The translations under genes were made by a program, and so were the position numbers. A stretch of DNA of 64,000 nucleotides from Thermodesulfobacteriota bacterium (GTDB taxonomy: Bacteria; Desulfobacterota; BSN033; UBA1163): the NCBI GenBank assembly GCA_049513055.1, contig JBEKWN010000006.1, positions 160 through 64,159 of the forward strand, in the 5' to 3' direction. A model generated the notes under the pieces. That model did no database searches. It was not told the origin of the DNA and was given only the letters and a program-made list of their open reading frames with translations. This document shows, piece by piece, positions 36,045 through 54,299 of the stretch (positions within the stretch are counted from its first letter, which is position 1; every line of letters begins with the position of its first letter).

Positions 36045-36164
36045 TTTTTTGTGTTATATTAAGAAACTAAAAGTTTATATACTTTTGAAGTGTTCATTTC
36101 GACGGATTGATAAGCTTTTTATATCTTGTTATATAAGTATCGATTTAGAAGGGACTTTAGGTTG

Positions 36165-37766
36165 ATGGATGTGAGGAGAAAATATATCTTTGGGTTACTC
36201 GCCATAGGGATGGTTCTCTTCTTTTTCAATTTGGGAGGAAGGGATCTCTGGGAACCCGATGAAACCCGGTATGCCGTGGTGGCCCGCGAGATGGTGCAAA
36301 GCGGGGATTGGATTTTACCTCATTTCAACAGGGAGATTTATGCAGAAAAACCTCCTCTCTTTTTCTGGTTGGTCAATCTCTCCACTTTCTTTCTAGGAGA
36401 AAACAACGAGTTGTCCAATCGCCTTCCTTCTGCCCTGGCAGGGTTGATGACCCTTTTCATCACATTTCTTTTTGGAGAGAGACTCTTTAATCTCAGAGTC
36501 GGATTCCTTTCCGCTTTGGTGCTGGGGACATGTATTTTGTTTCCCCAATTATCGCGTTGGATGATGCTCGATTCATTGTTTACCCTTTTTTTACTCTTGA
36601 GCCTTTTTTATTTTTATCTTGGTTACGAGAAAGAGGGGAGTCGCCGGAAATATTACTATCTCGCCAGCCTCTTTATGGGGCTGGGGGTTTTAACGAAAGG
36701 GCCTATTGGTTATCTTCCTCTTCCCATCCTCCTCCTCTTTGCCTTTTTTCAAAAAGACGTTAAGAAATTTTGGAATCGCGATTTGCTATGGGGATGTCTC
36801 CTCTCCTTGATTCTTGTATTGATCTGGTGGTTACCTGCTTGTTGGATTGGGGGAAAAGAATATATCTATTGGCTCTTGTTTAAGCAAGCCGTTGGAACTT
36901 ATGTAGAGGGGGGAAGACATTTTCATCCTGAGTCATTCTATTTCTACTTTGTCCGTTTCCCGATAGAATTTTTTCCGTGGATCGTTTTTTTGCCCACCGC
37001 ATTTGTTTTAGGGTTACGAAGGGACTTTCGCAAAAGAAAAGAATTCGTATTTCTCTCCATCTGGTTCTTTTTCATTTTCCTTTTCTTTACCCTCTCCAAA
37101 GGGAAGAAGGATAATTACCTTTTACCCCTTTACCCAGCTGCCGCCATGATGGTCGGGAGTCTATGGGATTTTGGGGTTCAGTCAGGGGAGGGGAAGAAAG
37201 GATTCCTATCTGGACTTCTTCTTTTAACCTTTCTGTTTCTCGCCGGCCTGGTTCTGTTCCTATCAAAAATGCCACAACAGTCCTATCCAGACATGACGGC
37301 CTATTCTTCTTTAGGGCTTTCCATTCTCTCTTATATCCTGCTTGGGTCCTTTTTCTCTCTGTTGTTTTTTATTAAGAAAAAGAAACAGGCCTCGTTCATC
37401 AGCCTTATGATCGCTTTCGCTCTTTTCCATCTTCATCTCTCCTATTCTCTTCCGCCAAAACTCAATCCCCAGAGGTCAGCCAAGGCATTTTCAGAGAAAG
37501 TTCTAAAGAGAATGGAGATGGGGGATGAACTTAAAACTTATTCCCTTAAGTCTAATGGATTGCTTTTCTATACCCAGAAACCCTATATAGAGAGTATTCA
37601 AAGCAAAGATCGCTTTTTTGAAATTCTCAACTCCTCCCAACGAGTTTTTGTTGTGTTTTATCCGGAAGTCCTTAATCAACTTCAGAAAGAAACAGGAGTT
37701 GAGTTCACTCCTCTTGAACAGGTGAAGGTAGGCCATTGGAAATATGTTCTCATTTCAAATCATTAA
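36165..37766 (+). CDS. GT-C glycosyltransferase, ArnT/PMT_2-like, paralog 1 (full length with C-terminal periplasmic domain)
   Basis: DETRYAVVAREM...AEKPPLFFW signature; 12+ TM; ORF could start at 36126. Confidence 0.8.
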   Translation: MDVRRKYIFGLLAIGMVLFFFNLGGRDLWEPDETRYAVVAREMVQSGDWILPHFNREIYAEKPPLFFWLVNLSTFFLGENNELSNRLPSALAGLMTLFITFLFGERLFNLRVGFLSALVLGTCILFPQLSRWMMLDSLFTLFLLLSLFYFYLGYEKEGSRRKYYYLASLFMGLGVLTKGPIGYLPLPILLLFAFFQKDVKKFWNRDLLWGCLLSLILVLIWWLPACWIGGKEYIYWLLFKQAVGTYVEGGRHFHPESFYFYFVRFPIEFFPWIVFLPTAFVLGLRRDFRKRKEFVFLSIWFFFIFLFFTLSKGKKDNYLLPLYPAAAMMVGSLWDFGVQSGEGKKGFLSGLLLLTFLFLAGLVLFLSKMPQQSYPDMTAYSSLGLSILSYILLGSFFSLLFFIKKKKQASFISLMIAFALFHLHLSYSLPPKLNPQRSAKAFSEKVLKRMEMGDELKTYSLKSNGLLFYTQKPYIESIQSKDRFFEILNSSQRVFVVFYPEVLNQLQKETGVEFTPLEQVKVGHWKYVLISNH

Positions 37767-37919
37767 GGGTCAGATGAGTTTTCTGGAAAGATAGGTATCC
37801 AAAAAAGGAACGGAGTAAAATAAAAACGATGAGGATCCAAGGGGAGTAAAGAGGGATATGATATCATAGGCTCATTAAAGAAATGGAATGGAAGATCCTC
37901 TATCGATTGAAATGAAAAG

Positions 37920-38564
37920 GTGCCGATCATGTATCATGTAAAGGTTATGTATCAAAATAAGAAATATGCGGCAGGCTATGAGAAGACAAGGTTCAAGGGG
38001 ATCTACGGAAGATTTAAGAATTGGAATACCAAAAGGGTGATTTCAAAACTGATTGGGTTTACAGAGAGAAAAGGTTTCGCCCTTGACCTTCCCTGCGGGA
38101 CAGGGAGATTAGGCCGCCTGATCTTAAAGAGTGGGTATAAATGGATCGGCGCGGATATCTCGTTAGAGATGATGATGGAGTCAAGAAAAAGGATGAACGG
38201 CTTTGAAGACTCATTCTGGAATATCCGCCTGGATGCAGAGACGATGTCATTTAAGGACAATAGTATTGACTGCCTCTTCTCCATTCGATTTATCTATCAC
38301 ATCCCCGTTGAGATAAGATATCGGATGCTTAAAGAGATGAGGAGGGTCACCAAGAAATGGCTGATCATCGATTATAATTATCCAAACAGGTTTAAAGAGT
38401 TGGCTCGCAGGGTAGGATCCTTATTAAGCAAAAGGCCGATCAAGAAAAGAATGATGCTCCAAGAGATATCGAGAGAGCTACGGGAGAATGGCTTAAATGT
38501 TTATAAAGCCATCCCTACATCAAGATTATTTTCCGATAATATATTATTGTTATGTCATAAATAA
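37920..38564 (+). CDS. Class I SAM-dependent methyltransferase
   Basis: LDLPCGTGRLG motif I. Confidence 0.75.
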   Translation: MPIMYHVKVMYQNKKYAAGYEKTRFKGIYGRFKNWNTKRVISKLIGFTERKGFALDLPCGTGRLGRLILKSGYKWIGADISLEMMMESRKRMNGFEDSFWNIRLDAETMSFKDNSIDCLFSIRFIYHIPVEIRYRMLKEMRRVTKKWLIIDYNYPNRFKELARRVGSLLSKRPIKKRMMLQEISRELRENGLNVYKAIPTSRLFSDNILLLCHK

Positions 38565-38677
38565 GGCCGCCGCCATTTTTTATCTGAAGGACTTATTCTG
38601 TTAATTCCTTTGTCGCCTCTTTAAAAAAAGGAAAAATGGAGGGGCATGAGAAATCTTAAGGAGAGTTAGGGAGGGAT

Positions 38678-39655
38678 ATGAAGCTTTTATTGATTGGCGT
38701 AGGAAGGTGGGGCAAGAACCATCTGAAGGCTCTGGTGAACCTCGTCGACGAGCTTTATGTGGTGGACTACGATCCGAGTCAACTGAAAGTCTGCAAGGAA
38801 TACTCAATTCCTGAAGATCATCTTTCCACCGATTATCGTGATTTTCTTGATCGCGTGGACGGGGTAGACATCGTTACGCCAGCGGATGGCCATCTGGGAA
38901 TTTGTAAGCACTGCTTTGAAAAGGGGAAGGATGTCTTTGTAGAAAAACCGATTGCCCTGACCACCCAAGAGGCAAAAGAGATGATCACTCAGGCCAAAGA
39001 GAATGGGATGATTCTACAGGTAGGCCATCTTTATCGGTATCATCCAGCCGCTTCGAAAATAAAACAGATCCTTGAGGAAGGGAAATTGGGCACCATTCAA
39101 TACGCCTATGGTCATTTCATGGGATTCAAAAGACCTAGAACGGATGTCGGCGTGACCCAAACGGATGCGATCCATTATTTCGATCTTTTTAATTATCTCT
39201 TTCATGAGCCCCCTCAAGCGGTCACGGCCGTTGTAAAAAATTACCTTCACCTTTCTCTTGATGATACCTCTGTCTCAGTCTTGGACTATCATGGAAAGAT
39301 CGTTTTTGTCGAAGCGGGGTATATGCCCCCTGAAAAAAGAAGAGATATTGCCATGGTTGGAGACCGAGCGAGCCTTTATTGCGACTTCCAAAAAAATTCC
39401 CTTCTCTTCTGTGAGAATCGACACGAGAGACAAGAGGGAAAATGTGTCGCTGTGGAAGGAGAAGCCCGAGGCATTCCCATAGAGCTTGAAGAGCCCCTGA
39501 CGATAGAATTAAAAGCGTTTCTCAATTCGATGAAGAATCGGTCCAAGCCCTTAGCAGATGGGCAGGCGGGCTTTGAGGCATTGAAAATTGTTGAAGTCTG
39601 TTATGAGTCCTCTCGGAGTGGAAGGAGATTGGAGATTGAATGGGAGAAAATCTGA
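38678..39655 (+). CDS. Gfo/Idh/MocA-family NAD(P) oxidoreductase (sugar-nucleotide dehydrogenase-like)
   Basis: MKLLLIGVGRWGKNHL Rossmann N-terminus; EKP motif. Confidence 0.85.
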   Translation: MKLLLIGVGRWGKNHLKALVNLVDELYVVDYDPSQLKVCKEYSIPEDHLSTDYRDFLDRVDGVDIVTPADGHLGICKHCFEKGKDVFVEKPIALTTQEAKEMITQAKENGMILQVGHLYRYHPAASKIKQILEEGKLGTIQYAYGHFMGFKRPRTDVGVTQTDAIHYFDLFNYLFHEPPQAVTAVVKNYLHLSLDDTSVSVLDYHGKIVFVEAGYMPPEKRRDIAMVGDRASLYCDFQKNSLLFCENRHERQEGKCVAVEGEARGIPIELEEPLTIELKAFLNSMKNRSKPLADGQAGFEALKIVEVCYESSRSGRRLEIEWEKI

Positions 39656-39676: not shown

Positions 39677-40792
39677 ATGAAGGTTCCTCTTTCTAAACCT
39701 TACATCGATAAAGAAATGAAAGATCGCGTATTAGAGGTGATTGATTCTGGACAATATATTTTGGGAGGCCAATGCAAAGACTTTGAAAAAGAGTTTGCCC
39801 AATTCATCGGAGTGAAACACGCCGTCCTCACCTCCTCAGGAACCTCCGCCATTTTTTTGTGTCTCAAGGCTTTGGGGGTCAAAGAAGGCGATGGCGTTTT
39901 GGTTCCCTCTCTCACCGCCTTTCCCACCATCGAACCCGTGTTTCATGTTGGAGCCAGACCCATTTTCATCGATATTGATGATACCTTTACCGTCGATCCA
40001 AAACATATCGAATCGGTTTTAAAAAATAGGAACCAGATATCGGGGGTCAAGGAGATCAAAGGAATTATTCCTGTACATCTTTACGGTCACCCTGCCCATA
40101 TGGATTCCCTTCTTGATCTGGCAAAGCGTTATGGACTTTTCGTTTTGGAAGATTGCTGTCAAGCCCATGGTGCCAAATATAAAGGGAAAAGGGTAGGATC
40201 AATGGGAATTGGCGGTTGTTTCTCTTTCTATCCTTCGAAAAACCTGACCGTTTTTGGAGATGGTGGAATTCTTGTCACCCCGGATGATGAGATGGCCAAG
40301 ACCTGTCGAATGCTGAGAGATCACGGTCGAAAAGAGAAGTATGAACATGAACTGGTTGGATATAATTTGAGGTTTAACGAAATCCAAGGGGCAGTGGGTC
40401 GCCTCCAACTTCGAAGGTTGGACTGGTTTAATGAATCGAGAAGGCGCATCGCTCAATGGTACAGCGATGGATTAAAGGGAATTCCAGTGACTACACCTCA
40501 GGCAAGGGATTGGGCTGAACCTGTCTATCATCTTTATGTCATCCAAACTCCCCATCGGGATGAGCTGGCTGATTTCTTAAAAGAGAAAGGGATTCAGTCA
40601 GGGATTCATTATCCTATTCCAAATCATCAACAACCAGCCGTTCGGAATGCTCTCGGTCAGCAGCCCAAACTGGAAAAGACAGAAGATACGGTCAAGAAAA
40701 TTCTCTCCCTGCCCATCTACCCAGAACTCGAAAAAGAGAAGGTGGATTTTGTGTGCGCCACCATCAGAGAGTTCTTTCATCAAAAAAGTTGA
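39677..40792 (+). CDS. DegT/DnrJ/EryC1/StrS-family sugar aminotransferase
   Basis: SSGTSAIFL, EDCCQAHGAKYKGKRVGS, FSFYPSKNL motifs. Confidence 0.9.
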   Translation: MKVPLSKPYIDKEMKDRVLEVIDSGQYILGGQCKDFEKEFAQFIGVKHAVLTSSGTSAIFLCLKALGVKEGDGVLVPSLTAFPTIEPVFHVGARPIFIDIDDTFTVDPKHIESVLKNRNQISGVKEIKGIIPVHLYGHPAHMDSLLDLAKRYGLFVLEDCCQAHGAKYKGKRVGSMGIGGCFSFYPSKNLTVFGDGGILVTPDDEMAKTCRMLRDHGRKEKYEHELVGYNLRFNEIQGAVGRLQLRRLDWFNESRRRIAQWYSDGLKGIPVTTPQARDWAEPVYHLYVIQTPHRDELADFLKEKGIQSGIHYPIPNHQQPAVRNALGQQPKLEKTEDTVKKILSLPIYPELEKEKVDFVCATIREFFHQKS

Positions 40793-40813: not shown

Positions 40814-41539
40814 TTGGGAGAAAACTATCAGATTGATATTTCAGTGGTGGTTCCGGTCTACAATGAAGAGGAGAATCTTCCCGTTTTGATTCCTCAACTC
40901 CATGACGTGCTCCGGGGGTTGGGAAAAACGTATGAGATGATTTTCATTGATGATGGGAGTACGGATCGTAGCCGTCGTCTTCTTAAAGAGATGGTTCCTC
41001 CGTATCCTGAAATACGAGTCCTTGGATTTAAGAGGAATTGCGGTGAGACAGTGGCAGGCGTAGCAGGGTTAAAAGAGGCAAGGGGAGAGATTGTCATCAC
41101 CATAGATGCTGACCTCCAGAATGACCCCAAGGATATCCCCAGGATGTTGGAATACCTGAAAGATTATGACATGGTAACAGGATGGCGTCAGAAGAGAGAA
41201 GATTCTTGGGTCAAACGGATCACATCAAAGATTGCTAATAGGATTAGGAACAGCTTGAGCGGAGAGGAGATCCGGGACAGTGGTTGTACCTTCCGGGCTT
41301 ATAAGAGGGAGTGTCTTCAAAATCTCAAATTGTACAAGGGGATGCACCGCTTCATGCCAACCCTGGTAAAGATGGAAGGATTTCGAGTGATTGAAATACC
41401 CATTGCCCACCATCCCAGGAAATTCGGAGTATCGAAATATACCACCTGGAATCGGATGTGGCGTGCCTTCATCGATCTTCTGGCTGTGAAATGGATGAGG
41501 AGTCGCCATATCCATTATGACATTGAGGAAAGGATCTGA
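40814..41539 (+). CDS. GT2 polyprenyl-phosphate sugar transferase (ArnC/DPM1/GtrB-like), TTG start
   Basis: SVVVPVYNEEENL, DDGSTD, DADLQNDP motifs. Confidence 0.85.
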   Translation: MGENYQIDISVVVPVYNEEENLPVLIPQLHDVLRGLGKTYEMIFIDDGSTDRSRRLLKEMVPPYPEIRVLGFKRNCGETVAGVAGLKEARGEIVITIDADLQNDPKDIPRMLEYLKDYDMVTGWRQKREDSWVKRITSKIANRIRNSLSGEEIRDSGCTFRAYKRECLQNLKLYKGMHRFMPTLVKMEGFRVIEIPIAHHPRKFGVSKYTTWNRMWRAFIDLLAVKWMRSRHIHYDIEERI

Positions 41540-41540
41540 A

Positions 41541-41897
41541 ATGGAATGTTTTTCATTTTTTAGTTTCGTGACCGATTTCTTGCAAGACCTATCTGTGCGA
41601 TATCCAAAATTTCAACTTGACTTCTGGGTGCTTTTCGGTTTTATCGGCCAGACGATGTTCACGATGAGGTTCATTGTCCAATGGATTGCGTCTGAGAAAA
41701 GGAAAGAAAGTATCATTCCGGTGGCCTTCTGGTACTTCAGCTTAGGAGGAGGGTTGATTCTCTTGGCCTATGCGATTCGCCAGATGGACCCAGTTTTTAT
41801 CGCTGCCTATCTTCTCAATCCTATTATCTACTTTAGGAACCTGTACTTCATTTATAAGAAAAAACCCAATCCAGAAACTTCTCACCCGAACCATTAA
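41541..41897 (+). CDS. Small membrane protein with LAB_N (lipid-A biosynthesis N-terminal, PF07578-like) domain
   Basis: RFIVQWIASEKRKESIIPVAFWYFSLGGGLILLAYAI; start overlaps GT2 stop. Confidence 0.6.
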   Translation: MECFSFFSFVTDFLQDLSVRYPKFQLDFWVLFGFIGQTMFTMRFIVQWIASEKRKESIIPVAFWYFSLGGGLILLAYAIRQMDPVFIAAYLLNPIIYFRNLYFIYKKKPNPETSHPNH

Positions 41898-41927: not shown

Positions 41928-43406
41928 ATGGTTAGACTGCAATGGTTCTTAAATAGAGAAAGGGTTCTATCATTCATGGAACGCGGGTGTTTTAAATTTT
42001 ATCAGCAAAAGTGGACTCAGATCGTTCTGCTCTTAGGATTCTGTTTCGTACTTTACTTTCTTAACTTAGGTCAATGGGAGCTTCGAAAACCGGATGAAAT
42101 CCGTTATGCTCAAGTCGCCCAGGAAATGGTTGAAGGAGGGGATTGGATCGTCCCGCGTCTCTGGCCATCTCATCCATTTCATGGGGAACCCTACATGGAA
42201 AAACCCCCCCTTTTTTTCTGGCTCATTGCACTTTCCTCTTATCTATGGAAAGGTTTTAACCCTTTTTCGGCGAGGTTTCCTTCAGCCTTTTTCGGGACCC
42301 TCACCGTGTTGTTTACCTTTTTTATTGGAAAGAATCTCTATAATTCCAGGACGGGATTCGTTTCCGGTCTCATCCTTGCTACAAGCTTTTTTTTCGCCCG
42401 TTTTTCTACCCGGGCCAATATCGATGCCACCCTGACTTTTTTTATCACAGCCTCCCTTTTTTGTTTTCTCCAATGGTACCAGGGGCGCAGAGAGGGATCA
42501 GATGGGCAGAAGGATATCCGGAGGCTATCCATCTATGGATTTTATGTGGGGATGGGATTGGCCACCCTCACTAAGGGACCAGTGGGTTTTTTCCTTCCCC
42601 TGCTGGCCAGTCTGGTCTATCTCCTGATCCAAAAGGATTGGAAAAAGATCAAGAGAATGAGGATTCTTTCGGGAATGCTCCTATGTTTAGCTATTGTTTT
42701 ATCCTGGTACCTTCCTGCGATACTCAAGGGAGGGCAAACGTACCTCAATGAAACGCTCTTCCATCAAACAATCGATTATTATTCAAAGGGATGGGATCAT
42801 CCCAAACCCATCTATTTTTATTTACGCAACTTTCCTGTAGATTTTTTACCCTGGATACTTTTTTTACCTGGGGCAATGGTTTATGGTTATTCCAAAGAGG
42901 CTTTTGGGAAAAGGAAAGAGTTTCTTTTCCTTCTGACCTGGTTCATTGTGATCTTTCTCTTTTTCTCTTTTTCCAAGACGAAGAGGGACCTCTATCTTTT
43001 ACCTCTTTATCCAGCCGCATCGCTCATGATTGGCAAGTTTTGGGGAGATTTTATTTTTGAACGGATAGAACATTTTCGAAAGGAATGGATCTCCTTACCG
43101 CTTTATGGTTTTATGGGATTGTCTTTGGCAGCAGGTCTAATCATCTTTTGGGAGGTCTCTAAAAAATTTCCTTCTTATTTGCTCTATACTCTGCCCATTA
43201 CCTGTTTCCTGGTCGGAGGTAGCATCGTATTGTTCTTTTTATATCGCTTTAAAAAATATGGAATCATCTTTTTTCTATCTATTTTGATGGCAGCAGGGGG
43301 ATTCTTTTATATAGAAAATATTCTATTTCCTTTGGAAAAGCGACTTAAATCTCCTCGTTCTATTTCCCATGAGATGAAGAATGAAATTAGTTTGGTCTCC
43401 CCTTAA
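41928..43406 (+). CDS. GT-C ArnT/PMT_2-like paralog 2, lacking the C-terminal periplasmic domain present in paralogs
   Basis: DEIRYAQVAQEM...MEKPPLFFW; ends ...ISHEMKNEISLVSP where paralogs continue ~100 aa. Confidence 0.75.
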   Translation: MVRLQWFLNRERVLSFMERGCFKFYQQKWTQIVLLLGFCFVLYFLNLGQWELRKPDEIRYAQVAQEMVEGGDWIVPRLWPSHPFHGEPYMEKPPLFFWLIALSSYLWKGFNPFSARFPSAFFGTLTVLFTFFIGKNLYNSRTGFVSGLILATSFFFARFSTRANIDATLTFFITASLFCFLQWYQGRREGSDGQKDIRRLSIYGFYVGMGLATLTKGPVGFFLPLLASLVYLLIQKDWKKIKRMRILSGMLLCLAIVLSWYLPAILKGGQTYLNETLFHQTIDYYSKGWDHPKPIYFYLRNFPVDFLPWILFLPGAMVYGYSKEAFGKRKEFLFLLTWFIVIFLFFSFSKTKRDLYLLPLYPAASLMIGKFWGDFIFERIEHFRKEWISLPLYGFMGLSLAAGLIIFWEVSKKFPSYLLYTLPITCFLVGGSIVLFFLYRFKKYGIIFFLSILMAAGGFFYIENILFPLEKRLKSPRSISHEMKNEISLVSP

Positions 43407-46247: not shown

Positions 46248-47452
46248 AAGAAAGAGAGCACGATTTTAGCTCCAAATTGAGACAGGATGCCACCCTTCAA
46301 AGGCTGAAAGACTATATTCAATGGCAGAGAAACTGTGACGTCAATGCTCCGGATCGAGAGCGACTGATTTTCAGTCCGATCTCCATCAATTTAGATCTGA
46401 CCTCTGCCTGCAATTTCTCATGCCCTTTTTGTGTCGATTCGAAGCTGATCAATGCCGGAAAAAGCTTGACCTTGGAGGAAGTAAAAAAGACGATCCACAC
46501 ACTCCATTCCCACGGTCTTCTCTCCGTTATCTTGATAGGAGGGGGAGAACCCACTCTTCACAAAGATTTTGGGGAGATCGTCCGTTATATCAAAAGTAAA
46601 CGGTTACAAATCGGGATCGTGACCAATGGCTCAAGACTAGAAAAAATTGAAGCAGTGGTCGAAGAACTAAGAGAGAAGGATTGGATCAGGATATCCATTG
46701 ATGCGGCCGGGGAAGGAGTCTTTAAAGATTTACACCTGCCTAAAACGCAAATGACTCTGAGTCGGATATTAGAAAAAGCAAAAAAGGTGAAAAAAAAGAA
46801 TCCCGTGGTTTCGCTGGGATATTCGTTTGTGATCGTCTGGGAAGGCGTGGAGATTAACGGGAAGAGACTCCATCCCAATATGGATGAGATAGCCAGATCG
46901 GTGGAGCTCGCCAGGGAATTCTCCTTTGATTATATTTCCTTTAAGCCCTGTTTAGTCCGATTGAATGAGTCTCAGAGGGAGACGTTGCTTAAAAACGTTG
47001 AAAAAACGAAAGAAGAAGAGATTATCGATAAAATCAAGATGCATCTGCAAGAGGCCAAGCGTTTCGCAGGGGACCAAGTCAAGATTCTTGAAAGCTCAAA
47101 CCTGAAGGCCATGTTAAATCAGGAAACGGATAGGATCAAAAGGCAGCCCAAAAGATGCCACATGCAATTTTTCAGAACCGTGGTGACCCCCTTCGGCATC
47201 TTTCACTGTCCGGCGTTTCGAGGAGTGGAAGAAGCCAGAATTGGAGATCCGGAGGGTTACCTATCGGAAAGAAAATTCAAGGAAAGTCTCAAAAGTACAG
47301 CTAAATCGATTCTGACCTTTGATGCCGAAGAGGAATGTAGAGATGTTGGATGTTTTTACAATCGTACCAACTGGTGGTTAGAAGAGTTCATCCATTCCAA
47401 AGAAGACATCCATGAACTTGAAAAAGTTGAAAATGATAACTTTTTCCTTTAG
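46235..47452 (+). CDS. Radical SAM enzyme (CNFSCPFC cluster; additional C-terminal Cys motifs)
   Basis: Cx3Cx2C at residue ~58; GGGEP; C-terminal CHMQ...CPAF...CRDVGC. Confidence 0.75.
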   Translation: MEKLKEREHDFSSKLRQDATLQRLKDYIQWQRNCDVNAPDRERLIFSPISINLDLTSACNFSCPFCVDSKLINAGKSLTLEEVKKTIHTLHSHGLLSVILIGGGEPTLHKDFGEIVRYIKSKRLQIGIVTNGSRLEKIEAVVEELREKDWIRISIDAAGEGVFKDLHLPKTQMTLSRILEKAKKVKKKNPVVSLGYSFVIVWEGVEINGKRLHPNMDEIARSVELAREFSFDYISFKPCLVRLNESQRETLLKNVEKTKEEEIIDKIKMHLQEAKRFAGDQVKILESSNLKAMLNQETDRIKRQPKRCHMQFFRTVVTPFGIFHCPAFRGVEEARIGDPEGYLSERKFKESLKSTAKSILTFDAEEECRDVGCFYNRTNWWLEEFIHSKEDIHELEKVENDNFFL

Positions 47453-47497: not shown

Positions 47498-48661
47498 ATG
47501 AAGATTCTCCATCTTTTCAGCAACTGGAAGTGGACAGGTCCTGCTGATCCAACCTTGAACCTCTGTAAGGGATTGGAGAAACGGGGGCATGATGTCACCT
47601 TTGTCTATCGAAAACCTCCTCTTCCGGTCGAGGATAGTATTGAGAAAAGGGTCCTCCAGGCAGGAGTAAAAGCCACGGATCGATTTCAATTGGACCATTC
47701 GGTGAAGTTTTACCATCTTTCCTTTTTACCGACCCATCTGCGTGACATTTTAGACCTCACCCAATATCTTCGTCAGGAAAAGTTCGATATTCTCAATGTC
47801 CACCACTCCCATGGCCATCTCTTGGGCGGGATCGCTGCCAGGAGGTCAGGCCATCCTGTGATCATCATTCGCACCGACCACAAGCGAGACCCTTTGAAGC
47901 CCAATTTGGGGAATCGCTTTCTCATCTCTCAGTTTACGGATGGAATGATTACTTTTTCCGAGAGGGCCAGGAGAGAGGATGCAGAACATTTCGGCCTTCC
48001 TCTTGAGAGGGTAGGGAAGATCTCACCGGCCTTGGATTTAAACCGGTATGATCCTCAGGGGAAATTTAAAGATATGAGGACTCTCTTTGGAATTGGATCA
48101 AAGGATATCGTTATCGGAATGGTCGCCCGATTTCAAAGATACAGAAGGACGACTGTCTTTTTGGAGGCGGTGAAAAAGATTGCCAGGGAATTTCCAAATG
48201 TGAAGGTTCTCTTGGTTGGCCGATCGAGTCAGATGGAGCAGAGTGTCATCCAGCCCATGAAACAGCTCGGCGTTGAAAAGTGGGTCGTTCTCGGAGGATA
48301 TCGGACGAATGACTATCTCGACACCTTAGCCTGTATGGACATCTTTGTCTTCTTAATGGCAGGTTCTGATGGAACAGCCCGAGCCTTGAGAGAGGCCATG
48401 GCCATGGGCAAACCGGTCATTGTGGCCAATCGGGGGATGCTCCCAGAATTGGTGGAGGAGGGCATTTCAGGTTTGGTGGTGAATGATACCCCTGAAGAGT
48501 TGGCCGGGGCGGTCCTTCGACTGCTTCACCATCCAGAAATGAGGGAGATTTTAGGGAAGGCGGCTTATCAGAAGGCCCATCAGGATTTCCAATTGGATCG
48601 ACAAGTGGAGGGCGTTGAAACGTTTTATCAAGAGATGATTAGACTCGGAAAGCGGAAGTGA
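47498..48661 (+). CDS. Glycosyltransferase family 4 (GT-B fold)
   Basis: N-terminal MKILHLFSNWKWTG; C-terminal E..G.P motif region. Confidence 0.8.
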   Translation: MKILHLFSNWKWTGPADPTLNLCKGLEKRGHDVTFVYRKPPLPVEDSIEKRVLQAGVKATDRFQLDHSVKFYHLSFLPTHLRDILDLTQYLRQEKFDILNVHHSHGHLLGGIAARRSGHPVIIIRTDHKRDPLKPNLGNRFLISQFTDGMITFSERARREDAEHFGLPLERVGKISPALDLNRYDPQGKFKDMRTLFGIGSKDIVIGMVARFQRYRRTTVFLEAVKKIAREFPNVKVLLVGRSSQMEQSVIQPMKQLGVEKWVVLGGYRTNDYLDTLACMDIFVFLMAGSDGTARALREAMAMGKPVIVANRGMLPELVEEGISGLVVNDTPEELAGAVLRLLHHPEMREILGKAAYQKAHQDFQLDRQVEGVETFYQEMIRLGKRK

Positions 48662-48725: not shown

Positions 48726-50348
48726 ATGGGGACTTCAATTCTTAAAAGAATATCGAAAGGTGAGATCAAGGGTTGGGTGAGAGGGGAAGTGTTGGATAAT
48801 CTTCCTCCCACTTTTTTTGATGACCCCACCTCTTCTGTTCAGGAGATGGGAGGAGAGGTCATCAAGGAGTCAACCTGGAGGTGGGCGGCTATTTTCTGTT
48901 CACCGAATGGTCGGAGGATTTTTTTAAAGAAAGATAAGACAAAGGGCTGGGCAGAGTATATGAAATATCTTTTTTCCCCCTCAAGGGGACAGAAAGAATT
49001 TCTCATCGCTTCCCTATTAGAGAGGAAGAGTCTCAACATCCCTAAACCCTTGGGCTGGATGGAGAGGGTCCGGAGGGGTTTGGTCAAGGAAAGTTATTAC
49101 CTCTCCGAGGCGATTGGAACAGGGGTTTCATTTATCGAGGAGGTTGCAAAATCAAAAACACCTCATTCAATGATTGAATTAGCGACGACCGTGAGGAAGT
49201 TTCAAGAAGTGGGATTATTTCATCAAGATCTTCACGCCGGAAACTTTTTGTGGGATGGCGACTCCTTATTTCTCACCGATTTACATCGTGCCAAAATCGT
49301 AAAGCCCCTCTCCCTGAACCAGAGGTTATGGAATTTATCACACCTCTTCCATTCTTTAAGATCGATGTGGGGAGAAGGGGAACAACTTCAATTCCTGAAT
49401 CAGTATTTTGAGGGGAGATTCGACGAATCTCAAAGAAGAGAAATGTTACATCAGCAGATTCATCCCGTTATGGGCCGCCTTCAAAAGAGGCAGTGGCGAA
49501 GCAGAACAAAACGTTGTCTGAAGGAAAGCACAGAGTTTACGGTTCAATGGGAGGAGGGGATTCGTTATTTTCATCGAAGGGATTTCCCCATGGGTCGTCT
49601 GAAAAGGGTGATGGAAGAGCACCAAGACCTGGTGAGAGAAAGACCCTTTTCCCTAGTCAAAAATTCTCCAGAAGTGATCGTTTCCATATTGAATGATGAA
49701 GGGGAGAAGATATGTTTGAAACAGTTCCGCACCCCTCATTTCTGGGGGCGGATGAAAGAACATTTCCGTCGCTCGAAAGGGCTTAAGTCCTGGATGGCGG
49801 CCAATGGCATGCGGGCGAGGGGCATTCCGTCTCTGAAACCCCTGGCTTTGGTGGAGAGAAAAAACTGGTTAGGATTGAAGGAGAGTTTTCTATTCATGGA
49901 GGCCCTGGCAAATGATCAAGAGATGGATCGATATATTTTAAAAGGGTTTGAAGATTTAAATAAAAAGAGGCTTTTTATTAAAACCTTTGCCCGTTGGCTT
50001 GATAGTCTTCATAAAATGAGTTTATTTCATAGGGATATGAAAACCTGTAATATCCTCGTCTCAGAAAAAGGAAAGACATGGGATTTCCATCTTCTCGATT
50101 TCGAGGATCTCCTCTTGGGGGAGAAGGTGAATCGAAAAAAATTGTTTAGAAATTTTCTCCAACTCAACACCTCCACTCCTAAAGTCATCACGAAGATTGA
50201 TCGCTTCAGGTTTTTTAGAGAATACCTCCGTCTCAACCCCATCATAAAAGACCAAGGGATTTTTCTCCGGGGGTTAATGAGAGAAAGTCGTCGGAGAGGA
50301 TTAGTTTACGTCTCGCCCCAGGGAGTGGTCACAGAAAGGATGGAATAA
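48726..50348 (+). CDS. Tandem two-domain lipopolysaccharide kinase (Kdo/WaaP family)
   Basis: Two kinase catalytic loops HQDLHAGNFLWDGD and HRDMKTCNILV. Confidence 0.65.
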   Translation: MGTSILKRISKGEIKGWVRGEVLDNLPPTFFDDPTSSVQEMGGEVIKESTWRWAAIFCSPNGRRIFLKKDKTKGWAEYMKYLFSPSRGQKEFLIASLLERKSLNIPKPLGWMERVRRGLVKESYYLSEAIGTGVSFIEEVAKSKTPHSMIELATTVRKFQEVGLFHQDLHAGNFLWDGDSLFLTDLHRAKIVKPLSLNQRLWNLSHLFHSLRSMWGEGEQLQFLNQYFEGRFDESQRREMLHQQIHPVMGRLQKRQWRSRTKRCLKESTEFTVQWEEGIRYFHRRDFPMGRLKRVMEEHQDLVRERPFSLVKNSPEVIVSILNDEGEKICLKQFRTPHFWGRMKEHFRRSKGLKSWMAANGMRARGIPSLKPLALVERKNWLGLKESFLFMEALANDQEMDRYILKGFEDLNKKRLFIKTFARWLDSLHKMSLFHRDMKTCNILVSEKGKTWDFHLLDFEDLLLGEKVNRKKLFRNFLQLNTSTPKVITKIDRFRFFREYLRLNPIIKDQGIFLRGLMRESRRRGLVYVSPQGVVTERME

Positions 50349-50353: not shown

Positions 50354-52006
50354 ATGAATCAACGATTTTCCAAAATGAGTCCTCAGCCATGGGCCCAGTT
50401 CGCCCTTCTCCTGGGACTCTGTTTCGTCATTTATTTTGTAAATCTGGGTCAATGGGACCTCTGGAGTCCAGATGAGCCCCGTTACGCTGAGGTTTCAAGA
50501 GAGATGGTGAACGGGGGGGACTGGATTCTCATGCATCGCAATGGGGAACTATACACCGATAAGCCCCCTCTCTTTTTCTGGTTCAATGGCATTTCATCCT
50601 TCCTCTGGCAAGGAGTTACCCCGTTTTCAGTAAGATTCCCCTCTGCCCTCTTTGGGACCTTGACGGTCCTTCTCACTTTTTTCATTGGGAGGAGGCTCTA
50701 TTCATCACGCACAGGGTTCCTCTCTGGGCTCATTTTGGCGACGAGTTTTCAATTCGCCTATCTCTCTACACGGGGCAATATTGATACCACCCTAACCTTC
50801 TTTACCACGGCTTCTATACTTTGTTTTATCCAATGGTATCAAAGCAACCAAGAGGGAGAGATTTCCCTAAAGGGGATGAAGGGTCTCTCTTTTTATGGAT
50901 ACTATGTGGGCATGGCTTTGGCCACCTTAGCCAAGGGACCTGTTGGATTTATCCTTCCCTTATTGGTCACTCTTCTTTTTCTTTTGGTTCAGAAGGATTG
51001 GAAAGGGATCAAGGCCATTAGGCTCCTTCCTGGGATGCTCCTGTTTTTGGCCATCGTCCTGTCATGGTATCTTCCTGCCGTTTTAATGGGAGGAAAAGAT
51101 TACCTCAACGCCACCCTGTTGCACCATTCTTTTGATCGCTTTGCAAAAGGATCAGCCCATATTCGGCCCATCTATTACTATCTCTATCAGTTTCCGCCTA
51201 ACTTTTTGCCCTGGATCATTTTTCTCCCTGCTGCCATGGCTTATGGTTTTTCTAGAGCGATGATAGCAAAGAGAAAAGAATTTCTTTTTCTAATGATCTG
51301 GTTCATTTGTATCTTTGGATTTTTTACTCTGTCTAAGGGAAAAAGAGGACTTTACTTTTTACCTCTCTTCCCGGCTGTATCGCTGATGGTCGGGAGGCTT
51401 TGGGAAGATTTTGTCTCTTTTTCGATGAAACATTTTCGGCATGAATGGATCACGATTCCCCTTTATGGATTGATGGGAGTGATTTGTGTGGCCGGTGTTG
51501 CCCTGCCATGGGTGATTTCGGCAAAACTTCCTTCTTACTTTTCCTATAGCCTCCCTGTTGCCTTTCTCTTGGTCGGAGTGAGCATTGGTCTATTTGTGCT
51601 TAACCGGTTTAAGTATTACGGAGCCATTTTTTTACTTCTCATCGGGATGATGGCAGGAGGATTTTTCTATGCATTGAGGGTTGTGTTCCCCCTTGTGAAT
51701 CCCTACAAATCATCCCGTTTCATTTGTCAGGAGATCACTACACGAATGCAACCCGGTGAGAAATTAGCCATCTATGGAGATTTTGAACCGGGTCCTTTTA
51801 ATTTTTATACAGGAATCGTTCCCATCCCGGTGTTGGAGGAGGAAGAGGCCCTCTTGCATTTTTTAAGGTCTCCGGAGAGGGGCTTCTGTCTGCTTAAATC
51901 CAGAGATTTTTTAAAATTTCAGAGCATAGAAGGTAGACCAGAAGTTCAATTGATCGTTCGACGTAGGATAGGCGATGGTGATTTTGTCTTGATTTCCAAC
52001 CGATAA
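50354..52006 (+). CDS. GT-C ArnT/PMT_2-like paralog 4 (full length)
   Basis: DEPRYAEVSREM...DKPPLFFW. Confidence 0.8.
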   Translation: MNQRFSKMSPQPWAQFALLLGLCFVIYFVNLGQWDLWSPDEPRYAEVSREMVNGGDWILMHRNGELYTDKPPLFFWFNGISSFLWQGVTPFSVRFPSALFGTLTVLLTFFIGRRLYSSRTGFLSGLILATSFQFAYLSTRGNIDTTLTFFTTASILCFIQWYQSNQEGEISLKGMKGLSFYGYYVGMALATLAKGPVGFILPLLVTLLFLLVQKDWKGIKAIRLLPGMLLFLAIVLSWYLPAVLMGGKDYLNATLLHHSFDRFAKGSAHIRPIYYYLYQFPPNFLPWIIFLPAAMAYGFSRAMIAKRKEFLFLMIWFICIFGFFTLSKGKRGLYFLPLFPAVSLMVGRLWEDFVSFSMKHFRHEWITIPLYGLMGVICVAGVALPWVISAKLPSYFSYSLPVAFLLVGVSIGLFVLNRFKYYGAIFLLLIGMMAGGFFYALRVVFPLVNPYKSSRFICQEITTRMQPGEKLAIYGDFEPGPFNFYTGIVPIPVLEEEEALLHFLRSPERGFCLLKSRDFLKFQSIEGRPEVQLIVRRRIGDGDFVLISNR

Positions 52007-52027: not shown

Positions 52028-52753
52028 ATGAAAAATTCTGAACCCATAGAAATCTCTGTGGTGGTGCCTGTCTATAATGAAGAGGGAAACCTTCCACTTT
52101 TAATTCCTAAGCTGGTGGAGGTTTTAAAGGGCCTTGGACGCTCCTACGAAATGATCTTCGTGGATGATGGAAGTTCAGATAAAAGCCGAAGGATTCTGGT
52201 AGAAATGGCCTCTCAATATCCTTCGCTCCGAATCCTTCGTTCTAAGGAGAACCGTGGGTTAAGCACGGCCCTTTTGATAGGAATGAGGGAGGCCCGGGGG
52301 GAGAAAATCGTCACCTTAGATTCAGACCTTCAGAATGATCCTGCCGATATTCCCAGATTATTGGAATATTTAGATTATTATGATATGGCGACGGGGTGGC
52401 GTCAGAAAAGGGAAGATTCATGGCTGAAGAAAATCTCTGCTAAAATCGCTAACGCCGTTCGGAACTGGGTGAGCGGTGAAAACATCCACGACAGTGCATG
52501 TACCCTCCGAGCATTCAAAAAGGAATGTATCCAAGATATCCCGGCCTTTAATGGGATGCATCGGTTTCTTTCTACGTTGGTCAAGATGGAAGGATATCGG
52601 ATCATTGAAGTTCCAGTTTCTCACCATCCGAGAAGGTTTGGGAAGTCAAAATACAATATTCGAAACCGCATGGTACGATCCTTCATCGACCTGCTAGCCG
52701 TGAGATGGATGAAACGGCGCACCATCCACTATGATATTGAGGAAAGGGTTTAA
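52028..52753 (+). CDS. GT2 polyprenyl-phosphate sugar transferase (ArnC/DPM1-like), paralog 2
   Basis: SVVVPVYNEEGNL, DDGSSD, DSDLQNDP. Confidence 0.85.
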   Translation: MKNSEPIEISVVVPVYNEEGNLPLLIPKLVEVLKGLGRSYEMIFVDDGSSDKSRRILVEMASQYPSLRILRSKENRGLSTALLIGMREARGEKIVTLDSDLQNDPADIPRLLEYLDYYDMATGWRQKREDSWLKKISAKIANAVRNWVSGENIHDSACTLRAFKKECIQDIPAFNGMHRFLSTLVKMEGYRIIEVPVSHHPRRFGKSKYNIRNRMVRSFIDLLAVRWMKRRTIHYDIEERV

Positions 52754-52754
52754 G

Positions 52755-53045
52755 ATGGAATGTCTAACGTTTCTGGGTTTCGCGCTCGATTGTTTCAGAG
52801 ATTTCTCAGCCAGATATCCAAAATTCGATTTGGACTTCTGGCTGGTCTTTGGTTTCATTGGATCAGTGATGTTTACCATGAGGTTCATCGTCCAAGGGAT
52901 CGCTTCTGAGAAAAAGAAGGAGAGCGTCATTCCTGTCTCTTTCTGGTATCTCAGTTTAGCCGGGGGATTGATTGTCCTCTTTAATGCCATTCATCGCATG
53001 GATCCGGTTTTCATCCTGGCCTATTTGCCAGGGAATTTTATTTAA
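52755..53045 (+). CDS. LAB_N-domain small membrane protein, paralog 2
   Basis: RFIVQGIASEKKKESVIPVSFWYLSLAGGLIVLFNAI. Confidence 0.6.
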   Translation: MECLTFLGFALDCFRDFSARYPKFDLDFWLVFGFIGSVMFTMRFIVQGIASEKKKESVIPVSFWYLSLAGGLIVLFNAIHRMDPVFILAYLPGNFI

Positions 53046-53116
53046 GAAACCCTTACTTTATTTACAAGAAAAAGAGAGTCTCTCCCCATCTGGTTCAATA
53101 AAAAAGAGAGGATGTT

Positions 53117-53674
53117 ATGGACGACAAGAGGACGTCTTGGCAGAGGAAAGTCCGAAGGATTCCACTTTTTATCGGAGCCTTTTTATTGGTGATCTTTGCG
53201 AAACCCCAATTCCCTGGGATCTTGATTGGGGTGATTTTGATCTTTTTAGGGGAAGGCATTCGTATCTGGGCGGCAGGTCATCTTCAAAAGAACGAGGTTC
53301 TGACGGTGACAGGCCCTTATGCTTATGTCAAGAATCCACTCTACATCGGTTCGATTTTTATTACGGCAGGCTTTTGCATCCTGGCGGACAATATCTATCT
53401 TCTGGCGGCAGCCTTCTTTATGTTCTGCTTCCATTACATTCCCTATAAGAAGAGGGTGGAGGGAGATCGGTTGAGAAAGATTTTTGGGAGCCGATTTGAG
53501 GATTATGACGAGAAGGTTCCGGATTACCTTCCCCGACGGACTCCCTATTCGAACGAAAAAGTCTCCTGGCAATTCAGATGCTTTATTGAAAACAGCGAAG
53601 AGGGAATTCTCCTCATCATCCTTGCTGGAATCGTGCTGATCCTGAGCCGCCCCTATTGGGGCCTCTTATTTTAA
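53117..53674 (+). CDS. Isoprenylcysteine carboxyl methyltransferase / PEMT-family membrane methyltransferase
   Basis: VTGPYAYVKNPLYIGS...R...EE..L...FG..Y..Y...VP motif region. Confidence 0.7.
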   Translation: MDDKRTSWQRKVRRIPLFIGAFLLVIFAKPQFPGILIGVILIFLGEGIRIWAAGHLQKNEVLTVTGPYAYVKNPLYIGSIFITAGFCILADNIYLLAAAFFMFCFHYIPYKKRVEGDRLRKIFGSRFEDYDEKVPDYLPRRTPYSNEKVSWQFRCFIENSEEGILLIILAGIVLILSRPYWGLLF

Positions 53675-53684
53675 AGGAGCGGAA

Positions 53685-54299
53685 GTGAAGCGAGAAGATT
53701 TTGAACACGGGGTTGTCTCCTGTGTCAAGGGAAAAGCCTTTGGGAAACCTGACTTGAATCAGGTCAAGGTGGAAGGTCGGTCCTTGATGGTGAAGGATGT
53801 CCGAAGAAAGAATTTTTTTTTGCGATGGACATTAGGACTTTGGTTAATTCATAAAGAATGGAAGATTTATTCCCGGCTCACCGGGATGAAAGGCATTCCC
53901 CAGCCTGTGGGGCGCATTGACCGCTTTGCTTTTGCCATGGAGTTCATCCCAGGAAGACCCATCCTGAGAGGAGAGCCCCTTCCTTCTTCTTTTTTCTCTG
54001 ATTTAGAAAGAGTGCTCAGAGAAGTTCATGACAGGGGAGTGGTCCACTTGGATTTGAGACATAAGGGGAACATCCTCGTCTCTGAAAACGGAGAACCTTT
54101 CCTCATCGACTTCAATAGCAGTTTTGCTTTTAAAGAAAAAAGATTCCTCCGGCGTTATCTTTTTCCTCTGCTCAGGTGGGTGGATTATGGAGGATTGCTA
54201 AAATTGAAAAAGAGAATTTCTCCTTCCTCGATGACTCCCGAGGAACTTGCCTTCCTCAAAGGGTTTGATCGGCTTCGAAGACTCTGGATCTTCAATTAA
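53685..54299 (+). CDS. Kdo-kinase (KdkA)/lipopolysaccharide-kinase-like protein
   Basis: VVHLDLRHKGNILVSENGEPFLIDFNSS catalytic-loop-like region. Confidence 0.55.
   Translation: MKREDFEHGVVSCVKGKAFGKPDLNQVKVEGRSLMVKDVRRKNFFLRWTLGLWLIHKEWKIYSRLTGMKGIPQPVGRIDRFAFAMEFIPGRPILRGEPLPSSFFSDLERVLREVHDRGVVHLDLRHKGNILVSENGEPFLIDFNSSFAFKEKRFLRRYLFPLLRWVDYGGLLKLKKRISPSSMTPEELAFLKGFDRLRRLWIFN

Follow-up and report, generated by a model that had tools for sequence, protein, structure and literature searches.

A probable lipopolysaccharide decoration locus with a GT2-LAB_N-GT-C module in an uncultured peat bacterium

The 64,000-nucleotide stretch of DNA analysed here (the window; positions 160 to 64,159 of contig JBEKWN010000006.1, assembly GCA_049513055.1) carries a run of 17 plus-strand genes at 36165-54299 (~18 kb), in which sugar synthases of glycosyltransferase family 2 (GT2), small membrane proteins of the LAB_N family and ArnT-like glycosyltransferases of the GT-C fold stand side by side. 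By comparison with related genomes, this is probably an assembly and decoration locus for lipid A and the inner core of lipopolysaccharide (LPS) in an uncultured peat bacterium of Syntrophaceae type, with an Arn-like module at its 5' end. The cluster, though large, is otherwise an ordinary LPS decoration locus, and the GT2-LAB_N-GT-C module is the part worth following. The new aspect appears to be a variant of three-component periplasmic glycosylation in which the synthase has no transmembrane hairpin and a LAB_N protein occupies the flippase slot.

Gene content and extent of the locus

The 17 genes follow one another at intergenic distances of -26 to 162 nt, and a 483-bp divergent intergenic region lies 5' of the cluster. 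Families were called by Pfam gathering thresholds, NCBIfam equivalog cut-offs and sequence matches to the Protein Data Bank (PDB). An earlier note on this DNA had listed GT-C, GT2, LAB_N, Gfo/Idh/MocA, DegT, radical S-adenosylmethionine (SAM), GT4, Kdo/WaaP and PEMT/ICMT genes, and these families all exceed their Pfam gathering thresholds where the note had placed them; its last kinase (53685-54299), taken for a Kdo/WaaP-type enzyme, reaches no Pfam threshold, and the class I SAM-dependent methyltransferase at 37929-38564 was absent from its list. The genes are the following (aa, amino acids; ORF, open reading frame).

36165..37766, plus: GTC1, ArnT-like GT-C, 533 aa, full length with C-terminal domain (Pfam PMT_2, PMT)
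37929..38564, plus: class I SAM-dependent methyltransferase, 211 aa (Pfam Methyltransf_25/11/12)
38678..39655, plus: Gfo1, Gfo/Idh/MocA protein resembling nucleotide-sugar 3-dehydrogenases (GnnA/WlbA-like; Pfam GFO_IDH_MocA and C-terminal domains)
39677..40792, plus: DegT-family sugar aminotransferase dependent on pyridoxal phosphate, 3-aminotransferase type (Pfam DegT, 392.8 bits)
40814..41539, plus: GT2a, ArnC-like polyprenyl-phosphate glycosyltransferase catalytic domain, 241 aa (Pfam Glycos_transf_2)
41541..41897, plus: LABa, intact LAB_N protein, 118 aa (Pfam LAB_N, 106 bits)
41976..43406, plus: GTC2, ArnT-like GT-C, 476 aa, without the C-terminal periplasmic domain; alternative start 41928 (Pfam PMT/PMT_2)
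43381..45153, plus: GTC3, ArnT-like GT-C, 590 aa (longest ORF); alternative start 43495 (Pfam PMT/PMT_2)
45288..46247, plus: Gfo2, oxidoreductase tied to the radical SAM enzyme; NAD-binding domain of Gfo/Idh/MocA type, C-terminal half divergent (in Pfam, only the N-terminal GFO_IDH_MocA domain)
46235..47452, plus: radical SAM enzyme, 405 aa (Pfam Radical_SAM, 81.6 bits)
47498..48661, plus: GT4 cytoplasmic glycosyltransferase of the GT-B fold (Pfam Glycos_transf_1, Glyco_transf_4)
48726..50348, plus: Kin2x, 540 aa, two kinase-like halves (Pfam Kdo, PF06293, 78.3 bits)
50375..52006, plus: GTC4, ArnT-like GT-C, 543 aa, full length; alternative start 50354 (Pfam PMT/PMT_2)
52028..52753, plus: GT2b, second ArnC-like GT2, 241 aa (Pfam Glycos_transf_2, 107.8 bits)
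52755..53101, plus: LABb, frameshifted LAB_N gene; ORF ends at 53045 (96 aa), out-of-frame tail to 53101 (three-frame translation)
53117..53674, plus: integral-membrane methyltransferase of PEMT/ICMT type, 185 aa (Pfam PEMT, 34.8 bits)
53685..54299, plus: small protein of the protein-kinase fold, 204 aa (sub-threshold Pkinase, RIO1, APH)
10948..12600, minus: GTC5, distant fifth ArnT/PMT-like GT-C, outside the cluster (NCBIfam ArnT, 123 bits)

Near-identical contigs of ~63 kb occur in several peat metagenomes (ENA ERZ27249763; JGI 3300018057, 3300009621 and 3300009614), and the window differs from these independently assembled contigs by 1 nt across 21 kb. The same proteins are present in an NCBI metagenome-assembled genome (MAG) labelled Thermodesulfobacteriota bacterium, and proteins related to the radical SAM enzyme at 58-89% identity come almost only from MAGs labelled Syntrophaceae, Thermodesulfobacteriota or 'delta proteobacterium'. 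The earlier note had proposed a synteny comparison. Made across 24 MAG loci and 80 metagenome loci, it shows the gene order kept in more than 20 related MAG loci and in the 80 metagenome loci, which, with the tight spacing on one strand, excludes a chance arrangement. On this comparison the locus divides into a variable 5' module, in the order GTC1, methyltransferase, Gfo1, DegT, GT2a, LABa, GTC2 and GTC3, and a conserved core, in the order Gfo2, radical SAM, GT4, Kin2x, GTC4, (GT2b, LAB_N), PEMT and small kinase, with a convergent 7TM-HD gene coming next; sub-modules are conserved across 53-90% protein identity. The 3' boundary, also conserved in relatives, is formed by YbeY, 7TM-HD (PgpH-like) and PhoH genes on the minus strand at 54382-58122. 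Rfam and tRNA scans of the whole window returned no RNA genes.

The GT2, LAB_N and GT-C proteins

GT2a and GT2b are 64% identical; distinct sugar specificities for the two are not supported. Both are devoid of any hydrophobic segment or transmembrane helix. GT2a aligns with solved ArnC (PDB 9HWJ) at E 9e-45 across ArnC residues 10-225 of 322, and the PDB matches to polyprenyl-phosphate GT2 enzymes, namely 9HWJ (ArnC), 5EKP (GtrB) and 5MLZ (DPMS), range from E 9e-45 to 2e-23. The DXD motif is present as DAD and DSD in the pair (DAD in GT2a). Against the ArnC equivalog model (NF007986, cut-off 529 bits) the two score 157-166 bits over profile positions 7-224 of 316, and both also match the NCBIfam PpgS model weakly. 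Judged from these alignments, GT2a and GT2b are ArnC catalytic domains from which the transmembrane hairpin is missing. Each GT2 gene is followed, after a gap of 1 nt, by a LAB_N gene, and the adjacency of a GT2, a small membrane protein and a GT-C is found twice in the window, at 40814-45153 and at 50375-53045.

Of the two LAB_N proteins, LABa holds all 14 residues that are invariant across 40 diverse members of the family. Its AlphaFold2 (AF2) model, with a confidence (pLDDT) of 83.6 overall and above 90 in the transmembrane core, consists of an amphipathic N-terminal helix and three transmembrane helices; an earlier model from a shallow alignment had reached a pLDDT of 60, and the fold search made from it was meaningless. 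LABb is 69% identical to LABa, and its reading frame ends after ...YLPGNFI, the conserved tail YLRNPYFIYKKK continuing out of frame to 53101. The frameshift sits in a T-rich run (…AATTTTATTTAAG…), and the conserved C-terminal helix is encoded in the other frame. In addition, G replaces the invariant residue W48, and Y97, R99 and N100 are lost through the frameshift. Orthologues of LABb elsewhere measure 113-127 aa. An assembly error was rejected as the cause, since the 96-aa product is called identically in three independent peat assemblies, with the caveat that all three stem from a single near-clonal population, whose members differ by 1 nt over 21 kb.

All five GT-Cs of the window exceed the Pfam PMT/PMT_2 thresholds (for GTC1, PMT_2 86.9 bits and PMT 74.9 bits). 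For the four in-cluster enzymes the best specific NCBIfam match is ArnT, at E 1e-46 to 1e-55 as against 9e-5 for Pmt, and GTC1 matches solved ArnT (PDB 5EZM) at E 1.4e-27. The 567-bit cut-off of the ArnT equivalog (NF009784) is missed by all five, with 188 bits for GTC1, 184 for GTC2, 157 for GTC3, 186 for GTC4 and 123 for GTC5. GTC1-4 retain the PDE, RYA and (E/D)KPP motifs of the first loop, the second Asp and the conserved Tyr; these motifs contain residues required for ArnT function (PMC5377068). The combination that marks the GT-C superfamily (PMT/PMT_2 with D(E/D)xRYA, Y.(E/D)KP and a second catalytic Asp) is thus found in GTC1-4. GTC2, GTC3 and GTC4 are 60-62% identical in pairs (62% for GTC3 and GTC4), and GTC1 is 37-42% identical to these three. 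The homology of GTC3 to its paralogues begins near 43528; its orthologues (76-83%) lie 3' of GT2a in relatives, and orthologues of GTC4 are found in nearly all core loci, which makes GTC4 part of the conserved core. The fifth GT-C, which the earlier note had described as GC-rich, is indeed so (GC 0.538 vs 0.444 for the window). GTC5 shows REV where the RYA motif is expected, is 25-27% identical to GTC1-4, and may have been acquired separately. It lies tail-to-tail with a gene of the AsmA/DUF748 family at 9180-10880.

GTC1, GTC3 and GTC4 possess a C-terminal soluble domain, whereas GTC2 ends right after the last transmembrane helix, at the position of GTC3 residue 506 or GTC4 residue 459, and so has no ~85-residue periplasmic domain. 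No remnant of this domain was found downstream or in other frames. In ArnT the corresponding C-terminal periplasmic segment includes a residue that the enzyme needs in order to work, E493 in B. cenocepacia (PMC5377068). GTC2 is missing from the six closest MAGs; its truncated sequence makes its functional status doubtful, and it is possibly defective. Since LABb and GTC2 both look defective, the locus probably has one working LAB_N protein and three full-length in-cluster GT-Cs. The paralogues are present, as the earlier note held, but its picture of a multiplied Arn logic was overstated. Decay of the whole cluster into pseudogenes was considered and rejected, because only LABb and possibly GTC2 are defective, while the other genes are intact and conserved.

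The LAB_N family falls into ~2,468 clusters when grouped at 50% identity, and two LAB_N repeats occur in many of its proteins. In the tandem members examined a hydrophobic linker helix lies between the repeats, which gives the 3+1+3 transmembrane plan of SWEETs; the layout of the SWEET clan, a three-transmembrane unit together with a 3+1+3 tandem form, is therefore found in LAB_N as well. The polar residues R43, Q47, E52, R99 and N100 are conserved within the membrane. The LAB_N profile matched no solved structure, and no functional study of LAB_N (PF07578) was found in the literature. Bordetella LgmD may be a LAB_N protein. Its gene is not essential for glucosamine modification (PMC4993483). 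RgtF, another candidate, was rejected as a LAB_N protein, being a GT-C (PMC7663294). In Pfam, the MtN3-like clan groups Lab-N with SWEET/SemiSWEET and PQ-loop proteins (PMC4499210; also PMC3281891). The PQ-loop protein CLPTM1L scrambles glucosaminyl-phosphatidylinositol (GlcN-PI), and MPDU1 is needed to use dolichyl-phosphate mannose (Dol-P-Man) and dolichyl-phosphate glucose (Dol-P-Glc) (PMC9169118).

A short GT2 lies directly upstream of LAB_N in 57 of 58 metagenome loci, and the GT2-LAB_N-GT-C trio was found in four phyla. Among annotated replicons of cultured bacteria, those of Azospirillum, Thalassospira, Ilyobacter (with two GT-Cs), Cetobacterium and Pelagovum have contiguous trios in which the GT2 measures 233-270 aa and the GT-C is of family GT39, and those of Paracoccus have the trio genes arranged differently; the genes of these trios often overlap. 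On the other hand, the long ArnC-type GT2s of sister MAGs (321-350 aa), which have transmembrane helices of their own, are not accompanied by LAB_N. Among the top representatives, nine LAB_N proteins are longer than 500 aa (P0123, P0125, P0127, P0129, P0131, P0136, P0207, P0154 and P0215), with the tandem LAB_N at the N-terminus. In seven of these the partner of the tandem is a GT-C, from GT87 in four cases and from PMT_2 in three; of the remaining two, one carries an LpxL-type acyltransferase and the other a metallophosphoesterase. The four-phylum trios, the fusions to GT-Cs and the membership in the SWEET/PQ-loop clan lend support to the idea of the earlier note that LAB_N could flip the donor or handle it as a subunit. 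The accompanying statement that LAB_N is consistently paired with GT2 is only half right, since GT2a stands without LAB_N in the six closest MAGs and GT2b does so in two.

A two-component system adjoins five of the eight LAB_N trio loci in cultured bacteria, and LAB_N/GT-C loci of Cetobacterium, Ilyobacter, Thalassospira and Hymenobacter adjoin one directly. In the window, a response regulator and a HAMP histidine kinase are encoded at 22269-24348, ~12 kb upstream of the cluster. These neighbours hint at PmrAB-like regulation. A LAB_N homologue with 53% identity over 73 residues is also present in Paenibacillus cellulosilyticus (NZ_CP054613.1 104785-113003; locus L113), a Gram-positive genome without lipid A.

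The variable 5' module and the conserved core

The six closest MAGs carry GTC1, the methyltransferase, Gfo1, DegT, GT2a and GTC3, with no LAB_N beside GT2a, no GTC2 and no GT2b/LAB_N; one of them (L004) retains a 3' remnant of LAB_N. Other contigs show the arrangement GT2a-LABa-GTC3. In a sister MAG (L006, 1345-8712), a canonical Arn operon stands exactly where the 5' module of the window sits, and encodes an ArnT-like GT-C, an ArnF/E-like protein of the SMR family, full-length ArnC (468 bits), ArnA (1071 bits, cut-off 777), ArnD (306 bits) and ArnB (457 bits). This replacement is the strongest evidence that the 5' module decorates lipid A or LPS. It is likewise the strongest evidence that Gfo1 and DegT supply a donor sugar, not the lipid A backbone, and that LAB_N sits in the slot of ArnE/F. 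Pfam and NCBIfam scans of the window detected no ArnA, ArnB or ArnD, so that the co-occurrence of these enzymes expected of an Arn pathway is not found, and the Pfam scan revealed no flippase candidate of the GtrA or SMR type among the cluster genes. A canonical pathway for 4-amino-4-deoxy-L-arabinose (Ara4N) was rejected, given the missing ArnA and ArnD, the 3-amino type of the aminotransferase and the scores below cut-offs.

The best NCBIfam match of Gfo1 is UDP-N-acetylglucosamine (UDP-GlcNAc) 3-dehydrogenase, at 165 bits against a cut-off of 450, and JGI annotates members of the Gfo1 cluster under the same name. Its best PDB match is 7BVJ, which we take to be GnnA. The top PDB matches of the DegT protein are 7B0D, 2OGA, 3FRK (QdtB) and WbpE (E 1e-100 to 1e-66), presumably all C-3 aminotransferases, whereas ArnB matches at only 1e-51; by these matches the protein appears to group with the sugar 3-aminotransferases, not with ArnB. 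The product suggested by the closest relatives of Gfo1 and DegT is most likely a UDP-2-acetamido-3-amino sugar. The DegT gene is separated from GT2a by 21 nt, and the class I methyltransferase travels with GTC1-Gfo1-DegT-GT2a in relatives. Upstream in the window, at 25726-28906, a FemAB-like/GNAT protein and a second DegT-family aminotransferase of 488 aa are encoded; this pair may have another function in envelope amino-sugar or peptide modification.

In the core, the pairing of Gfo2 with the radical SAM enzyme is kept in all of the at least 20 loci, down to 53% identity. The radical SAM enzyme has the CxxxCxxC motif at residues 59/63/66 and four C-terminal Cys residues, and a search for its subfamily in NCBIfam and the PDB gave only weak matches to viperin, MoaA, SkfB and Tes. 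Distant pairs (down to ~56% identity) in L018 (2406-6737), L020 (7507-10849) and L022 (4978-8056) adjoin GT9 heptosyltransferases or an LpxL-type acyltransferase (Lip_A_acyltrans), which suggests an uncharacterised radical SAM step in inner-core or lipid A biosynthesis of anaerobes. A radical SAM fragment with 61% identity on a 1.6-kb contig (L027, JAECRW010000263.1), binned as the archaeon 'Candidatus Sifarchaeum marinoarchaea', is probably a binning contaminant.

GT4 is conserved at 75-91% in all core loci and probably acts on the LPS core. Kin2x exceeds the Kdo threshold of 21.3 bits widely (78.3 bits) and scores ~75 bits against NCBIfam RfaP and KdkA; its C-terminal half is WaaP/Kdo-kinase-like, aligns with WaaP (6DFL) and shows HRD..N and DFED motifs, and the NCBI name of a cluster member is 'lipopolysaccharide kinase InaA family protein'. 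The membrane methyltransferase matches PEMT at 34.8 bits (cut-off 25) and ICMT at 20.4 bits; its best NCBIfam match is LmtA_Leptospira (TIGR04571, a lipid A 1-phosphate O-methyltransferase), at 39 bits against a cut-off of 325, so that it belongs to the PEMT family and resembles LmtA only distantly. This match, like the Kdo/WaaP match of Kin2x, adds to the link with LPS. In relatives its gene is always followed by the small kinase gene. The 204-aa product of the latter matches NCBIfam PRK12274 at 63 bits and KdkA at 28 bits, with weak matches to kinases in the PDB, and remains below every Pfam threshold; it is generically protein-kinase-like and was not found to be of the Kdo/WaaP type.

On the other side of the cluster, a divergent minus-strand operon at 30546-35681 encodes an acyl carrier protein, a FabF-like ketosynthase, a HAD-IB phosphatase, a class III aminotransferase, an alpha/beta hydrolase, a DedA/VTT protein and two TatA/B genes. 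The acyl carrier protein and ketosynthase remain beside GTC1 in relatives, and the operon may serve a special acyl chain or an aminolipid pathway. DedA proteins are flippases of undecaprenyl phosphate (Und-P) (PMC12893004).

Proposed pathway, alternatives and meaning

The pathway suggested by these genes would begin with the oxidation of a UDP-N-acetylhexosamine at C-3 by Gfo1 and its transamination by the DegT enzyme, which would likely give a sugar of the UDP-2-acetamido-3-amino-glucose (UDP-GlcNAc3N) type, possibly methylated by the adjacent methyltransferase. GT2a, seated at the membrane with no hairpin of its own, would load this sugar onto undecaprenyl phosphate. LABa, three-helix, SemiSWEET-like and probably dimeric, would bind the enzyme and/or the polar head group and would move the lipid-linked sugar, or hand it over, to the periplasmic face, where GTC1, GTC3 and the core enzyme GTC4 may transfer it to different positions of lipid A or the inner core. 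The core module would contribute a sugar added in the cytoplasm by GT4 and a WaaP-type phosphorylation. A second donor pathway could run through GT2b and, with its own LAB_N broken, would presumably rely on LABa. A methylated phosphate or carboxylate could be the product of the membrane methyltransferase and the small kinase, and the Gfo2-radical SAM pair may carry out a sugar-tailoring step; the roles given to this pair, to the two methyltransferases and to the small kinase are guesses.

The closest known counterpart is the Arn system (PmrHFIJKLM), which modifies lipid A with L-Ara4N. There too an oxidoreductase and a DegT enzyme supply the UDP-amino sugar, a GT2 charges undecaprenyl phosphate with it, the flippase slot is taken by a small membrane protein, and transfer falls to a GT-C of ArnT type. 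GT2a/b are true homologues of ArnC, as GTC1-4 are of ArnT. Unlike Arn, the locus has no ArnA (decarboxylase/formyltransferase) and no ArnD, its aminotransferase is of the 3-amino type, LAB_N replaces the SMR-type ArnE/F, the GT2s have no hairpin, and three or four GT-Cs take the place of one. The relation is one of homology and analogy and not of orthology, no gene being an Arn orthologue. The Arn-like logic of the earlier note thus stands in so far as it is carried by the ArnC and ArnT homology, the Arn operon of L006 and the GT9/LpxL neighbours of the distant Gfo2-radical SAM pairs, and fails at the level of orthologues.

Several GT-Cs per GT2, which had been presented as a departure, have a precedent in rhizobia, where RgtA-C are further ArnT-like GT-Cs of the Rgt system. 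Like the locus described here, this system directs several ArnT-like GT-Cs to different lipid A and core sites with a lipid-linked donor made by a GT2 (PMC7663294 for RgtD/E/F), and by analogy the GT-Cs of the window probably serve different acceptor positions. As described, the Rgt genes differ in being dispersed, in using a uronic acid donor (galacturonic acid, GalA) and in having no described LAB_N partner. In the three-component systems GtrA/GtrB/Gtr*, CsbB/GtcA/YfhO and C. youngae ORF12-15, neighbouring genes likewise encode a glycosyltransferase acting on polyprenyl phosphate, a small protein that is a candidate flippase, and a GT-C (PMC11127046). However, the flippase candidates named for them are GtrA, the SMR-family protein Rv3789 and an EmrE/ArnE-like 'MATE-family' protein, and LAB_N is not among these (PMC11127046); moreover, GtrB-type GT2s bear transmembrane helices of their own. 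The system for Dol-P-Man (DPM1, DPM2/3, MPDU1, PMT/ALG) resembles the locus in its anchor-less GT2, its SWEET/PQ-loop-clan protein and its PMT-type GT-Cs (PMC3281891, PMC9169118, PMC4499210). It differs in that LAB_N has one unit of three helices (in other bacteria also a 3+1+3 tandem) and only a remote relationship to MPDU1. Mycobacterial PpgS (Rv3631)/Rv3632/Rv3779, which places galactosamine on arabinogalactan, likewise unites a short GT2 without helices, a neighbouring stimulating membrane protein and a GT-C. There the acceptor differs from that of the window locus, and Rv3632 is GtrA-like, presumably not LAB_N.

On this basis LAB_N proteins could be widespread SemiSWEET-type flippases or scramblases, or hand-over chaperones, for polyprenyl-phosphate monosaccharides, which would form complexes with ArnC-like synthases lacking transmembrane helices, feed GT-Cs and represent a prokaryotic counterpart of MPDU1. 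We hold this proposal tentatively, as we do its corollary that LAB_N might add a third class of component to the three-component glycosylation systems of bacteria. Several results weigh against it or against the wider picture. Comparison of LAB_N with SemiSWEET by sequence and fold gave similarity below significance. Fusions of LAB_N to lipid A enzymes of the cytoplasmic face (LpxL-type, metallophosphoesterase and chlamydial LpxB, the last known from an NCBIfam model match) agree with flipping, but equally with a general role in anchoring to the membrane or binding glycolipids. The six closest MAGs have GT2a without LAB_N, two other MAGs have GT2b without it, and LABb is broken, so that LAB_N may be dispensable or redundant, or may be provided by another part of the genome. 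The fusions and the frequent loss taken together suggest that it may be a glycolipid-binding module, helpful and not always essential. In addition, the Arn-related scores lie far below equivalog cut-offs, so that homology identifies neither the sugar nor the acceptor; proteins or other glycans can be targets of ArnT/PMT-like GT-Cs as well; and promoter and terminator scans gave no operon signal above chance level.

If LAB_N did no more than anchor the helix-less GT2 in the membrane or serve as its assembly subunit, flipping would fall to another, unlinked protein or occur spontaneously. GT2a/b do lack the ArnC hairpin, it is the GT2s of 233-270 aa that go with LAB_N and those of 321-350 aa that do without, the GT2 and LAB_N genes are translationally coupled (1-nt gap or overlaps), and the fusions to peripheral cytoplasmic-face lipid A enzymes fit this role, for which human DPM3 with DPM1 and the mycobacterial membrane partner of Ppm1/PpgS would be analogues. 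Nevertheless, we regard it as unlikely: most fusions are to GT-Cs, which already have at least 10 transmembrane helices and need no anchor, so that these fusions tell against anchoring as the sole role, invariant residues of charged and polar type within the LAB_N helices resemble a substrate site, the family belongs to a clan of transporters and scramblases (PMC4499210, PMC9169118), and the retention of GT2a without LAB_N in six MAGs shows that anchoring is not obligatory. A different doubt concerns the sugar. Gfo1 and DegT might be GnnA and GnnB, making UDP-GlcNAc3N for a 2,3-diamino-glucose lipid A backbone, with GT2a/b using ordinary UDP-hexoses or uronic acids, as RgtE does. Their best matches are UDP-GlcNAc 3-dehydrogenase and 3-aminotransferases, and the classic pair for such lipid A is adjacent as well (general knowledge; mentioned in PMC7663294). 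However, the pair moves as a unit with GTC1, the methyltransferase and GT2a, and this unit is swapped for an Arn operon in sister MAGs, an exchange not expected between a backbone pathway and a decoration pathway; a backbone role is accordingly rather unlikely.

The acceptor might also lie outside LPS, with the GT-Cs acting in PMT-like protein O-glycosylation or on another envelope polymer. Their Pfam PMT/PMT_2 matches and the automatic NCBI name 'glycosyltransferase family 39' agree with this, as do the Paenibacillus record of LAB_N from an organism without lipid A and the fusions of some LAB_N proteins to GT87, a family known from mycobacterial mannosyltransferases. Since ArnT is by far the best specific match of the four in-cluster GT-Cs and the genomic context is that of LPS throughout, a non-LPS target seems improbable. 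Slightly less credit is due to the idea that the supposed supercluster is a waa-like neighbourhood of independent, partly decaying LPS genes with no integrated multi-sugar pathway. The varying gene content among relatives, the frameshift of LABb, the truncation of GTC2, the LAB_N remnant in L004 and the missing operon signals would agree with it, but the tight spacing on one strand, the conservation of sub-modules over 53-90% protein identity and the recurrence of the GT2-LAB_N-GT-C unit across phyla make it very unlikely.

The route of Und-P-Ara4N, Und-P-Glc, Dol-P-Man and other lipid-linked monosaccharides across the membrane is not well settled, and there is little direct evidence for GtrA and ArnE/F. 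LAB_N is genetically locked to a synthase and GT-Cs, and in some bacteria it is fused to a GT-C; if the tentative role in flipping or hand-over holds true, this small and tractable bacterial protein of the MPDU1/SWEET clan would offer a simple test system for the flipping step. For the organism, the locus would mean that anaerobic Syntrophaceae of peat vary the charge and surface of their outer membrane by swapping Ara4N and 3-amino sugar modules at one site.

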